Shown: positions 9,064 to 59,184, counted from the stretch's first letter. The stretch: 64,000 nt of DNA from Clostridiaceae bacterium (GCA_031289315.1 JAITPR010000048.1:1085-65084), one strand, 5' to 3'. Numbers and translations: made by a program. The notes: a model not told the origin generated them from the letters alone.

Positions 9064-9441
9064 ATGGCAGATATTAATAAGCTTTTAGATGAAATCAAAG
9101 GCATGACGGTTATCGAGCTTTCTCAACTCGTTAAGGCTTTGGAAACCGAATTCGGCGTTAGCGCAGCCGCTCCCGTAGCCGTAGCCGCTCCCGTAGCAAA
9201 CACAGAGGCAGCCGCTCCCGTAGAGGAAAAGACCGAGTTCGACGTCATATTAAAGGAAATCGGACCCAACAAGATTGCGGTTATTAAGGTTGTCCGCGAA
9301 GTGACCGGTTTAGGTCTTGTCGAGGCAAAAGCCGCCGTCGAAGGCGCCCCCAAGACCATCAAGGAAGGCATTGCGAAAGCCGCCGCCGAACAGATCGTCG
9401 CGAAGTTCAAGGAAGCCGCAGCGGTTGCCGAAATAAAGTAA
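9064..9441 (+). CDS. rplL: 50S ribosomal protein L7/L12
   Basis: The ATG at 9064 follows GGAGGA. The product begins [27 protein letters not shown], has an Ala/Pro hinge and the [17 protein letters not shown]-terminal domain. The track start at 8971 is over-extended. Confidence 0.95.
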
Positions 9442-9446
9442 TTTAA

Positions 9447-9553
9447 GGGGTGGGACAGTTCGCGGTGACAAAGTATTTTCAGGCTACTTTAGACTAAAAG
9501 AGCCGAAAAGATTTTATTGGCAGACAAGCCGTCACTACGAATTTTCCACACCC
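9447..9553 (+). repeat. Family A palindromic MITE-like element, copy 1 (long variant)
   Basis: The arms GGGGTGGGACAGTTCGCGGTGAC and GTCACTACGAATTTTCCACACCC flank an extra internal module. AATTTAA flanks both sides (9440-9446 and 9554-9560). Confidence 0.8.
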
Positions 9554-9628
9554 AATTTAACTTGACTTATGCGGGTTCCTTGCTTTAAGGAAGGGACAAG
9601 CAGGCGTTGAGATTGACCCTCTTAACTT

Positions 9629-9677
9629 AAAAATGCGGTTGCAGTAGGAAAAAATTCTATTGACGACCGCGTTTTTT
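9629..9677 (+). terminator. Family B hairpin terminator after rplL
   Basis: CTTAACTTAAAAATGCGGT...ACCGCGTTTTTT. An imperfect stem is followed by a T-run, with the conserved AAC(C/T)TAAAA lead-in. Confidence 0.55.
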
Positions 9678-10103
9678 GTTTGGGGTTACAGCGCTTATCC
9701 GCGTGTTTTTTAATTCTTTTTGTCGTGTGCCGAAAAACTCTTCGTCATTTTTTACCTTTTTTGAGGAATTTCACGGTAAAAGTATAAAAATAATGAGAAA
9801 ATTTAATTGTTTTTTTCGAATAAGTATTGAAATTTTTCTCTTAATAGGTTAAAATTATTATAACGTATATACAAGAGCCGTACTTCCGCGTGAGGTCGGT
9901 TATATACGGCGACCGGCGGCTCGCCGTTTTTGCGTAAGTTTTTAAATAAGCGCTTATTTTTCGCGTATGCGATAAATAGCGCGGCACGGATGAAAAAATA
10001 AAAACCGGTTACGCTTGCCGCGAATGCGCGGCACGGACGGAAAAATAAAAATCCGATTACGCTTTCTAACGGTAGCGATACGGATAGAGGAGATAAAAGA
10101 AAT

Positions 10104-56938: not shown

Positions 56939-57231
56939 CGTGGAGAAAAATTCTTTTTACCGGAAGGCAAAATCCGTTAGACGGGAAAGTAAACTTCGTT
57001 TGACGGAGAAACAAAATCCGATTGACGTGGACTTACGTAGAAATTTTTTTTAAATTTGTGTGCGGTTTTATAAATATTATATTATCATGAACGCGTGAGC
57101 TTGAGCGCCCTAAAAATAGGACGCTCCTAATCTATAGACAAGATAAAAAATTTTTCCGCAAAGCGGACGCGGCAAGGAAAACACAACCCTTGTATGCGAA
57201 GGAAAGCCTACGGGAAAGACGGTACGGTGAT

Positions 57232-58923
57232 ATGATACTGAAATATTTATTTCGCGATAAAGCGGCTGCCATAGCCTTGCTTTTTATTTATGTATTATCC
57301 GCCTTAATGGTTACGGGCTTGGCGCTTGTTTACGGCAATCTGGTAAACGTCGTCGCGAACGGCGCGAACATTCCGGAGTTGCTTAAGGCGTCCCTGTATT
57401 CATTGGCGTACACGGTGATAGTCGGCGTTTTGTTTTGGCTCAAGCATTACTACGGCAACGTATTTTTTGCGCGGTTTTACAGCGCATTGCAAAACGAATA
57501 TTTCAAGAAGATAATAAATTCGAATTACGGCAACATCTCTCAAGAGGACTCGTCTAAATATTTTACCGCCATAACAAACGACGTCGCAAGGATGCGCGCT
57601 AACGGGTGGATGCTGTACGATTTGGCGGAAAAAAGCGTTGCCGTGGTATCCTCGTTTATTGCCGCCGTGATACTGAATTGGGAAATAGGGCTTATCATGC
57701 TGGCGTTGACGGCGATAATGGGAATACTTCCGCTGATAATAAAAAAGCGGCTTGATAAGCAGACCTTGCTCTGCTCCGACGTCGAAAAAATATATTCGAG
57801 GTCGCTTAAGGAAAATTTGCAAGGCGCCGCCATAATCAAAAGCTTTTCCGCCGAAGGGCGCGCACTAAAAGAGGTAAGCGCGGCAAACAATAAATTACTT
57901 GTCGAAAATAAAAAAAAGTCGGCTATAGACGCGTTTGCCGGAGGCGCCGGCGTGATAGTTCAGAACATCTCCATACTGGCGCTTGTCGGGCTTACCTGCT
58001 ACTTTGTAATCATGAAAAAAGTGGAAATCGGAGCGGTGCTTTCCATAGTGCAGATAGGCATGGGTTTTTACGGCGGCATGCTGGGGTTCGCTTCGACGAT
58101 TACCTACTACATGGGCAGCGCGGGCGTGCGTAAACGGGTGTTCGGCGTCCTAAATAAAGCGGACGACAACATACCCGCTAAGGAAATTTCTTTTTCGGCG
58201 GGCATAGCGCTTAAAAACGTTTCGTTCAGCTATCCTGATAAGGAGAGAGCCGCATTGGACAAAGTTAATCTAGAATTGGAATGTGGTAAAAAATATCTGA
58301 TACTAGGCAAAAGCGGTAGCGGTAAATCCACGGTTTTAAAGCTTATGGCCAAATTCTACGATGTAAGCGGCGGCGAAATTTTAATAGACGGAAAAAGTTA
58401 TTCGGATCTGCGGGAACGGGATATAGCAAAAATCGTATCCGTCGCGCTGCAAAGCTGTTATCTTTTCAACCGTAGTTTTAGAGAAAATATCGACTATCTA
58501 GGTGAGAACGACGAGGAAAAATTGGAACGTGTGATTGAATTTTGCGCGCTTAAGGATTTTGTCGCCACGCTTCCGCAAGGGTTTGATACCGTGGTGGACG
58601 AGGAAGTAAATCAAGTCTCCGGCGGCGAAAAGCTGCGCATAAACTTAGCAAGGGCGTTGTACCGCGAAAGCAAAATTTTGCTTCTTGACGAGGTGACCTC
58701 AGCATTGGATAAGAACACGGCTAACATAGTGGAAACGAACCTGCTTTCCCTTGAGGGCAAGACCGTCGTCAACGTTTGCCACAAATTTAACGACTCCACG
58801 TTGCCGCTGTACGATAAAATTTTCATCATAGAGGACGGAAATATAGTGGAAAGCGGAAGTTACGGTGAGATAGGCGAAAGCCCGGTGTTGTACCGCTACA
58901 GAAGTCAAGAGGGCATAAACTAA
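57232..58923 (+). CDS. ABC transporter, fused permease/ATP-binding exporter half-transporter
   Basis: An N-terminal 6-TM domain is followed by Walker A GKSGSGKST, the signature VSGGEKLR and Walker B LLLDEVTS. The ATG at 57232 is preferred over the track start at 57190. Confidence 0.88.
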   Translation: MILKYLFRDKAAAIALLFIYVLSALMVTGLALVYGNLVNVVANGANIPELLKASLYSLAYTVIVGVLFWLKHYYGNVFFARFYSALQNEYFKKIINSNYGNISQEDSSKYFTAITNDVARMRANGWMLYDLAEKSVAVVSSFIAAVILNWEIGLIMLALTAIMGILPLIIKKRLDKQTLLCSDVEKIYSRSLKENLQGAAIIKSFSAEGRALKEVSAANNKLLVENKKKSAIDAFAGGAGVIVQNISILALVGLTCYFVIMKKVEIGAVLSIVQIGMGFYGGMLGFASTITYYMGSAGVRKRVFGVLNKADDNIPAKEISFSAGIALKNVSFSYPDKERAALDKVNLELECGKKYLILGKSGSGKSTVLKLMAKFYDVSGGEILIDGKSYSDLRERDIAKIVSVALQSCYLFNRSFRENIDYLGENDEEKLERVIEFCALKDFVATLPQGFDTVVDEEVNQVSGGEKLRINLARALYRESKILLLDEVTSALDKNTANIVETNLLSLEGKTVVNVCHKFNDSTLPLYDKIFIIEDGNIVESGSYGEIGESPVLYRYRSQEGIN

Positions 58924-59065
58924 AACGACCGAAGTTATGCCGCTACGGAAATTCGAAAGCATAAACTAAAACGACCTATTTAAGACCGGGCGCGGCTAGC
59001 GGCAGCAAACTAAAAAACTAAAGCCGTTCGCGTCCGCAAAAAATTTATCACGGGAAATAAAAAAA

Positions 59066-59137
59066 GTGGAGGACAATTCGCGGGGACAAAAGCTTTCCTT
59101 AGACAGGTAAGTCATCACAGCGGATTGTCCACACCCC
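59066..59137 (+). repeat. Family A element, copy 16
   Basis: GTGGAGGACAATTCGCGGGGACAAAAGCTTTCCTTAGACAGGTAAGTCATCACAGCGGATTGTCCACACCCC. TAAAAAAA flanks both sides (59058-59065 and 59138-59145). Confidence 0.85.
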
Positions 59138-59142
59138 TAAAA

Positions 59143-59184
59143 AAACGGCGGATTTCTAGAAAAAAAATCCGCCGTTTGTTTTTA
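59143..59184. terminator. Bidirectional terminator downstream of the ferredoxin gene
   Basis: AAACGGCGGATTT-loop-AAATCCGCCGTTT with an A7 run on one side and GTTTTT on the other. Confidence 0.65.

Follow-up and report, generated by a model that had tools for sequence, protein, structure and literature searches.

Family A, a dense intergenic repeat family with MITE-like features in a Clostridiaceae bacterium

Are the palindromic repeats of about 70 bp that lie scattered between the genes of a Clostridiaceae bacterium miniature transposable elements with inverted repeats (MITEs), or are they repetitive extragenic palindromic (REP) hairpins? The question is raised by a stretch of 64,000 nucleotides (GCA_031289315.1 JAITPR010000048.1:1085-65084; hereafter the window, meaning the whole stretch that was analysed), in which an earlier note had described such a repeat and favoured the first answer. 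The repeat family, here called family A, is real, and it quite probably represents MITEs, that is, non-coding deletion derivatives of a DNA transposon. The preference for MITEs over REP hairpins is upheld by an excess of flanking duplications, by single arms that are not palindromic, and by the absence of compensatory changes between arms.

Copies, ends and size variants

Copies were located with an nhmmer profile, run at full sensitivity and built from nine family A copies, which yielded 17 loci in the window, 13 of them complete and four partial, with eight on the + strand and nine on the - strand. All 16 loci listed in the earlier note were recovered, in both orientations as it had said, together with one full copy at 39590-39661 that its list had overlooked. 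The arm GGGTGTGGACAATTCGCGGTGAC has 11 matches in the window at up to three mismatches, compared with none in each of 100 dinucleotide-preserving shuffles. Family A amounts to 1,292 nt, or 2.0% of the window, and to approximately 10% of its non-coding DNA after subtraction of the gene list, and it is present in about one-third of intergenic gaps. The density, called unusual at roughly one copy per 4 kb, was measured at one locus per 3.8 kb, which is at the high end. As described before, every one of the 17 loci is intergenic or clips a gene end, the sole exception to strictly intergenic placement being the copy at 11352-11449, in which an oxidoreductase open reading frame (ORF) ending at 11372 has its stop codon and its final 21 nt. 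Full-size copies span 69-175 bp, below the coding capacity needed for a transposase, and the ORFs that adjoin them are housekeeping genes.

All 23 stem positions of the consensus pair, and the 25-nt loop they enclose includes a small inner stem (CTTG/CAAG), in agreement with the stem of about 23 bp and the 25-nt loop reported previously. The consensus folds as DNA at -28.8 kcal/mol (z = -9.6), compared with -21.2 kcal/mol (z = -5.2) for the best of the real copies. The 23-nt arms pair in 77.6% of cells across ten copies. Conservation within the element is highest in the loop and the inner stem.

Ten of the 17 loci belong to a short form of 69-74 bp, three are longer (107, 98 and 175 bp), one (14504-14590) has a diverged interior, and three are fragments; the length of about 70 bp given earlier describes the short form and not the three longer copies. 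The subterminal sequence AAAATATTTTCAGGCTATTTTTAAGGATAAAA of the 175-bp copy recurs in the copies starting at 11352 and 27491 and, partly, in that at 9447, and the 72-bp form matches a deletion between two ATTTTC motifs. Since the 72-bp form has subterminal sequence in common with the 175-, 107- and 98-bp copies, it is an internal-deletion derivative. Family A accordingly forms a nested deletion series from a longer progenitor, for which the 175-bp copy is the best proxy. Nested deletion from a longer progenitor is the usual history of MITEs (PMC10969869).

Flanking duplications and lineage restriction

Element boundaries were set by alignment to the consensus ends; direct repeats anchored at both of them were then sought, the longest exact one being taken. 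Two controls were used: the left flank of one copy paired with the right flank of another, which keeps composition and target preference, and random AT-rich sites 72 bp apart. An exact repeat of at least 7 bp flanks 4 of the 12 complete copies at a boundary slack of 1 nt, 5 of 12 at 2 nt and 6 of 12 at 4 nt, versus rates of 2-5% for mismatched flanks and 0.6-2.5% for random AT-rich sites. The comparison with chance that the earlier note had called for thus reveals an excess, 10 to 100 times above the controls (binomial P 1e-4 to 1.6e-5). This favours real target-site duplication, most likely 8 bp long and at AT-rich targets.

Clean duplications (copies named here by their start positions) are AATTTAA at 9447, TAAAATAA at 41922, CAATTTAG at 48155 and TAAAAAAA at 59065, and imperfect ones occur at 50273 (6/7) and 39590 (5/7). 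Six flanking repeats had been claimed originally; four of them stand, exactly or 1 nt longer, and two, GTTAGGGA at 16465 and ATTTAGGG at 30515, are ambiguous, with the element's own terminal GGG falling inside one repeat copy. At one end of the 16465 copy, GTTA is the only part of the repeat beyond the element. The boundary-anchored repeat search found no flanking duplication at 18855, 20195, 21296 or 53692. Among complete copies, each of the six in + orientation has a clean or nearly clean duplication, as against none of the six in - orientation, a post hoc association in 12 copies (Fisher P 0.001-0.03). Copies with clean duplications show AAAATATTTTCTTG as their loop on the + strand, in the sense of the leading-strand genes and of the positive GC skew. 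Inversion between copies was considered as a reason for absent duplications and rejected, since no pair of flanks matches 8/8 as reverse complement.

Prokaryotic MITEs are defined structurally as elements of 50-500 bp, with further structure criteria, and their truncated copies grow REP-like (PMC10969869). Family A combines small size, terminal inverted repeats, duplications above chance, and dispersed copies in both orientations.

The short copies are considerably diverged, with a mean pairwise identity of 71% and a best pair at 86%, and those with perfect duplications show 14-17 differences from the consensus over 72 positions, where counted. Minor alleles are shared more often than independent decay would allow (30 observed vs 21.3 +/- 2.8 expected, P ~0.001), and the copies at 39590 and 41922 have seven derived variants in common. 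Perfect duplications on diverged copies, together with the shared minor alleles, suggest that divergence largely predates insertion, and this in turn points to several source lineages.

Family A is restricted to one lineage within the collections searched. Degenerate patterns matching six to seven window copies were used for scans of public DNA. They gave no match in 185,579 GTDB species genomes, none in IMG/VR (two patterns), and six in JGI metagenomes, all of them chance matches confined to the pattern itself. blastn against plasmids and phages returned nothing below E = 0.1, and a literature search for the arm sequences found no match. The element is open in four of six reading frames, and the translated consensus gave no candidate in a set of 5.8 billion proteins. 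The exact proteins of the window were found elsewhere only in Logan assemblies of SRR14710897, which represent the same strain. One Logan contig (L001) is 100% identical to window 16606-20246, and another (L094), which ends near window 50320, is 100% identical where compared; both end inside family A copies, L094 within 50273-50344.

The nearest relative is a sister species in JGI 3300042606 (UvrB 88%, ApgM 81%, approximately 75% nucleotide identity), whose two contigs contain no family A copy. Relatives with 79% identical UvrB likewise have none in about 31 kb, versus about eight expected at window density. Three sites that hold a copy in the window, upstream of uvrB, upstream of apgM and downstream of apgM, are without the element in the sister species, itself only about 75% identical in nucleotides, and the site upstream of uvrB is also empty in the 79% relatives. 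In these relatives the orthologous gene of 130/131 aa either runs into uvrB or stops 9 nt short of it; at this junction the window has the 69-bp element at 48155, and the left copy of CAATTTAG holds the stop codon of the 131-aa gene. Upstream of apgM, a TTGACA-N18-TATAAT promoter is common to the window and the sister, and beyond it, where the copy sits, the sister sequence is unrelated.

The intergenic gaps of the sister species have repeats of their own, namely tandem direct duplications of 34-125 bp (on contig L082 at 161-277, 2267-2334 and 2521-2746; on contig L095 at 1359-1598 and 1947-2175), one of which occupies the site of window copy 48155.

Proposed mechanism and rival explanations

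For the MITE reading we infer a DDE-type mechanism, either cut-and-paste or copy-and-paste, and an autonomous partner. The key parts would be the terminal inverted repeats of about 23 nt (GGGTGTGGACAATTCGCGGTGAC and its near-complement), the putative binding and cleavage sites of a transposase that some other part of the genome would provide in trans. Targets would be AT-rich intergenic 8-bp sites such as (C/T)AATTTAR or TAAAAWAA, where staggered cuts followed by repair would leave a target-site duplication of 7-8 bp. A progenitor of at least 175 bp probably gave rise to the 107-, 98- and 72-bp forms through serial internal deletions between short direct repeats (ATTTTC...ATTTTC), and the hairpin is a by-product of the inverted ends rather than a selected structure.

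Several observations weigh against this reading. The copies are very diverged, yet some of the most diverged ones keep perfect duplications, and with no pair above 86% identity nothing points to very recent activity. Clean duplications are missing from 4-6 of the 12 complete copies, and those present are confined to one orientation, for which we have no explanation, the pattern being post hoc and based on 12 copies. Neither a transposase nor a REP-associated tyrosine transposase (RAYT) or other Y1 transposase was found among the 50 window ORFs scanned, and 1.37 Mb of retrieved loci contained no ends matching family A. Moreover, the empty sites come from a species at about 75% nucleotide identity, not from strains of the same species.

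The outline of family A recalls two inverted REP units forming a hairpin (a REPIN), which a single-copy RAYT would mobilise on single-stranded DNA without target duplication, but such a REP-like origin is very unlikely. HUH/Y1 transposition (IS200/IS605-type) is not known to make target duplications, whereas duplications of 7-8 bp are strongly over-represented around family A; that several copies have no flanking duplication would suit the REPIN explanation. A length of about 70 bp, two inverted 23-nt units, a conserved 25-nt spacer, high copy number and strictly extragenic placement all give family A the look of a REP dimer, and the CGTC tetranucleotide at the inner edge of one arm, within AAGTCGTCACC, is one of the two REP tags (PMC3733652). 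However, each REP unit is a palindrome by itself and bears a GTAG or CGTC tag (PMC3733652), while family A arms taken singly stay unfolded (0 and -0.5 kcal/mol, with shuffles equally good), GTAG is absent, and CGTC stands only beside the right arm, with TGTC at the equivalent position of the left arm. Nor did the scanned window ORFs include a Y1 transposase. The unfolded arms, the tag pattern and the duplications exclude membership of REPs and REPINs, and the dimer-like look stays a similarity.

A further possibility is an RNA or DNA hairpin selected by the host, for termination, mRNA 3' stabilisation or host-protein binding, with mobility secondary or extinct. Many copies lie 0-50 nt past stop codons in co-directional arrays and hence must be transcribed, real copies fold well (RNA minimum free energy -16 to -72 kcal/mol on the stabler strand; DNA z -5.2 to -9.6), and it is the loop and inner stem that are most conserved. 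The arms themselves argue otherwise: standard pairs fill 80.2% of stem cells in the ten short copies compared with 81.3% when right arms are shuffled among copies, and pair changes on both sides occur in four cells, which equals the shuffle expectation. Pairing within copies that is no better than between shuffled arms, without compensatory changes, indicates that the arms drift independently; on the strength of this independent divergence, the unfolded single arms and the missing GTAG, family A is not REP/REPIN-like and is not a hairpin selected as RNA. Next to flanking genes that are almost uniformly +, the copies point either way (8 + and 9 -). The summed RNA fold favours the element's forward strand (-391 vs -335 kcal/mol for the reverse), whichever genomic strand carries the copy, an advantage that arises because of built-in T:G positions. 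Selection for RNA structure along transcription was therefore rejected, as stability tracks the orientation of the element and not the direction of flanking genes. Terminator-like scan matches inside copies (region 9000-28000) occur at 11376 and 20220, each being only the 5-bp inner stem, and a clear T run follows a copy only at 50273 among the flanks read, T-tracts not having been scanned systematically. On these observations the copies do not fit the pattern of an intrinsic terminator, a G+C-rich stem with a T run immediately behind it on the transcribed strand. Rfam gave no match at gathering score across the whole window, and the three uvrB and apgM sites described above are empty in the sister species. 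The earlier suggestion that copies serve as terminators or mRNA 3' stabilisers finds no support, in view of the mixed orientation, the single T run and the shuffled-arm result, and a host-selected hairpin is highly improbable.

Within the MITE reading itself, family A might be a fossil, the relic of an ancient burst whose copies nothing mobilises now. The mean identity of only 71% with no pair above 86%, the fragments or solo arms at four loci, the degenerate termini of the copies at 30515 and 53692, and the lack of a transposase among the window ORFs scanned are all consistent with such a history, which we nevertheless regard as unlikely. Four copies carry perfect duplications of 7-8 bp despite 14-17 differences over 72 positions where counted, and under equal neutral decay, by our own estimate, 16 flanking bases would remain intact with a probability of about 0.03 per copy. 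Shared derived variants also point to several source lineages and not to one old burst. It is about as improbable as the host-selected hairpin that family A is mobilised by a kind of transposase not yet linked to MITEs, or by two routes. This alternative draws on the orientation-linked duplications, on copies about 20% diverged with perfect duplications, and on the lack of similar sequences in approximately 186,000 species genomes. If true, it would mean insertion dependent on strand or replication direction, or error-prone copying of the element, rather than ordinary DDE transposition.

Genomic context and relation to known systems

In order along the window, the first copy is the 107-bp long variant at 9447-9553 (+), complete with both arms and a 35-nt subterminal insert, which starts 5 nt past the rplL stop codon and has a perfect 7-bp duplication. 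It is followed by the 98-bp long variant at 11352-11449 (-), with a truncated outer left terminus and overlapping the 3' end of the oxidoreductase ORF, and by the copy at 14504-14590 (+), whose left arm is intact and whose short right terminus GTCCTCACA pairs with TGTGAGGAC, and which shows no clear flanking duplication. The longest copy, 175 bp at 16465-16639 (-), is palindromic over its full length. Three complete copies without duplication lie at 18855-18928 (-; 74 bp), ending 6 nt upstream of the apgM -35 box, at 20195-20267 (-; 73 bp), 12 nt past the apgM stop and abutting a hairpin of another repeat family, and at 21296-21367 (-; 72 bp), 4 nt past a stop codon. Fragments comprise a solo right arm, CGCCGCGAATTGTCCACGCCC, at 20532-20552 (+), a left half at 27491-27547 (-), with the left arm and long-variant subterminal sequence and no right half, and a degenerate left-arm fragment at 54407-54436 (-), 18 nt upstream of copA. 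The copy at 30515-30584 (-) has a degenerate left terminus, and that at 53692-53762 (-; 71 bp) is complete with a degenerate right terminus and no duplication. Complete + copies of 72 bp occupy 39590-39661 and 41922-41993, which belong to the same subfamily, the latter with a perfect 8-bp duplication, and 59065-59136, also with a perfect 8-bp duplication, as has the 69-bp copy at 48155-48223 (+). The copy closest to the consensus, with five differences, lies at 50273-50344 (+) between the near-perfect duplication AATTTTA/ATTTTTA.

At least two other families of palindromic intergenic repeats, unrelated to family A and with arms like TAAAAGCGCGGAATAC and AAAAACGCGGTTGACGC, are present at 20263-20338, 24282-24360, 45300-45347, 27322-27414 and 44879-45047. 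They often share a gap with a family A copy, for example 20195/20263 and 27322/27491. A Neisseriaceae origin was considered and rejected: none of eight DNA-uptake-sequence dialects occurs in the window, and EF-G has its best matches in Clostridia / Christensenellales, as given below.

The genes of the window include rpsL-rpsG-fusA-tuf, ribosomal proteins, cofactor-independent phosphoglycerate mutase, a C_GCAxxG protein and a CshA-like helicase, as well as subunits of a 2-oxoacid:ferredoxin oxidoreductase. Its EF-G is at most 70% identical to those of the GTDB scan candidates scored, the best being metagenome-assembled genomes (MAGs) of uncultured Clostridia / Christensenellales. A perfect sigma-70-type promoter (TTGACA, 18 nt, TATAAT; 12/12) lies at 18935-18964, upstream of apgM. 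Within family A itself, a promoter scan gave only weak 9/12 consensus matches, in few copies. Gene order differs from that of relatives: in four relatives' contigs (L083-L086) dfrA-orf139-orf130-uvrB-uvrA are adjacent, while in the window dfrA is about 18 kb from orf147-orf131-uvrB (27764-29151 vs 47296-50226), a family A copy and a sigma/anti-sigma pair stand behind uvrB in place of uvrA, and rplL is not followed by rpoB. The altered neighbours show that rearrangements have occurred in this lineage, and a family A copy lies near at least the breakpoint downstream of uvrB.

Other repeats in the window are of different kinds. Three tandem 51-bp units containing CTGTCACCTTGAGC lie at 61185-61339, upstream of a + ORF that exceeds 775 codons and continues past the end of the window. 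Tandem repeats with periods of 18, 24 and 45 nt occur at 29483-29632, 15598-15711 and 52446-52735, the first of these within a - strand ORF (29260-30486). The arrays with periods of 18 and 45 nt fall within protein-coding ORFs and would therefore encode repetitive protein segments, and the 24-nt array is situated just past the 3' end of a 245-aa ORF, overlapping only its final codons. Adjacent paralogous esterase/lipase genes at 12282-13394 and 13528-14469 represent a tandem gene duplication, in which stretches of 68-77 nt with 73-78% identity reappear 1177 nt apart.

Family A adds a MITE family in an uncultured Clostridia / Christensenellales-like, gut-type bacterium, a group in which few such elements have been described. 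Short-read assemblies of this organism break at family A copies, as two independent Logan contigs illustrate, which helps explain why only fragmented MAGs represent the lineage and its sister. Because copies lie within a few nucleotides of stop codons, of ribosome-binding sites and, in one case, of a strong promoter, they may influence how operons are expressed.

Among known systems, REPINs and REP dimers with their RAYTs resemble family A in their two inverted units (about 23 nt each), the conserved spacer between these (about 25 nt), a long hairpin and abundant extragenic copies (PMC3116915, PMC3733652), and differ from it in that family A has non-palindromic units, no GTAG, CGTC at one arm only, target duplications, and no RAYT in the window. 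The ERIC/IRU elements of enterobacteria are likewise full-length imperfect palindromes, intergenic and co-transcribed, with length variants produced by indels at fixed points, whereas family A is confined to one lineage, diverged, and accompanied by duplications. ERIC elements measure about 127 bp, are highly conserved across genera and are not known to have clear target duplications. As a lead only, insertion sequence (IS) families with 8-bp duplications and GG/GGG termini (such as the IS1016 group of the IS1595 family, ISL3 and IS256) may include the parent, since the 7-8 bp AT-rich duplication and the GGG(G/T)(C/G) ends of family A would fit such an element. The ISfinder entry of the IS1016 group has ends of the type GGGgctg and direct repeats of 7-9 bp.

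The closest counterparts are prokaryotic MITEs. Correia and RUP elements duplicate TA, whereas the duplication of family A is 7-8 bp and AT-rich. Family A also differs from Correia/CREE of Neisseria, RUP of Streptococcus pneumoniae, Chunjie of Geobacter, QMITE of Coxiella and MITEAba12 (PMC10969869) in having no sequence similarity in the searched collections, in its uncultured Clostridia host, in a density at the high end (2%, one per 3.8 kb), and in copies that are unusually diverged (71% mean identity). It agrees with these elements in a size of 50-500 bp, the lack of transposase coding, inverted ends, direct duplications, tens or more of intergenic copies, size variants arising by truncation or internal deletion, and decayed copies that look REP-like. 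Family A is accordingly a dense, lineage-restricted new instance of the well-known MITE class and no new kind of system, and it leaves the understanding of how MITEs work unchanged.

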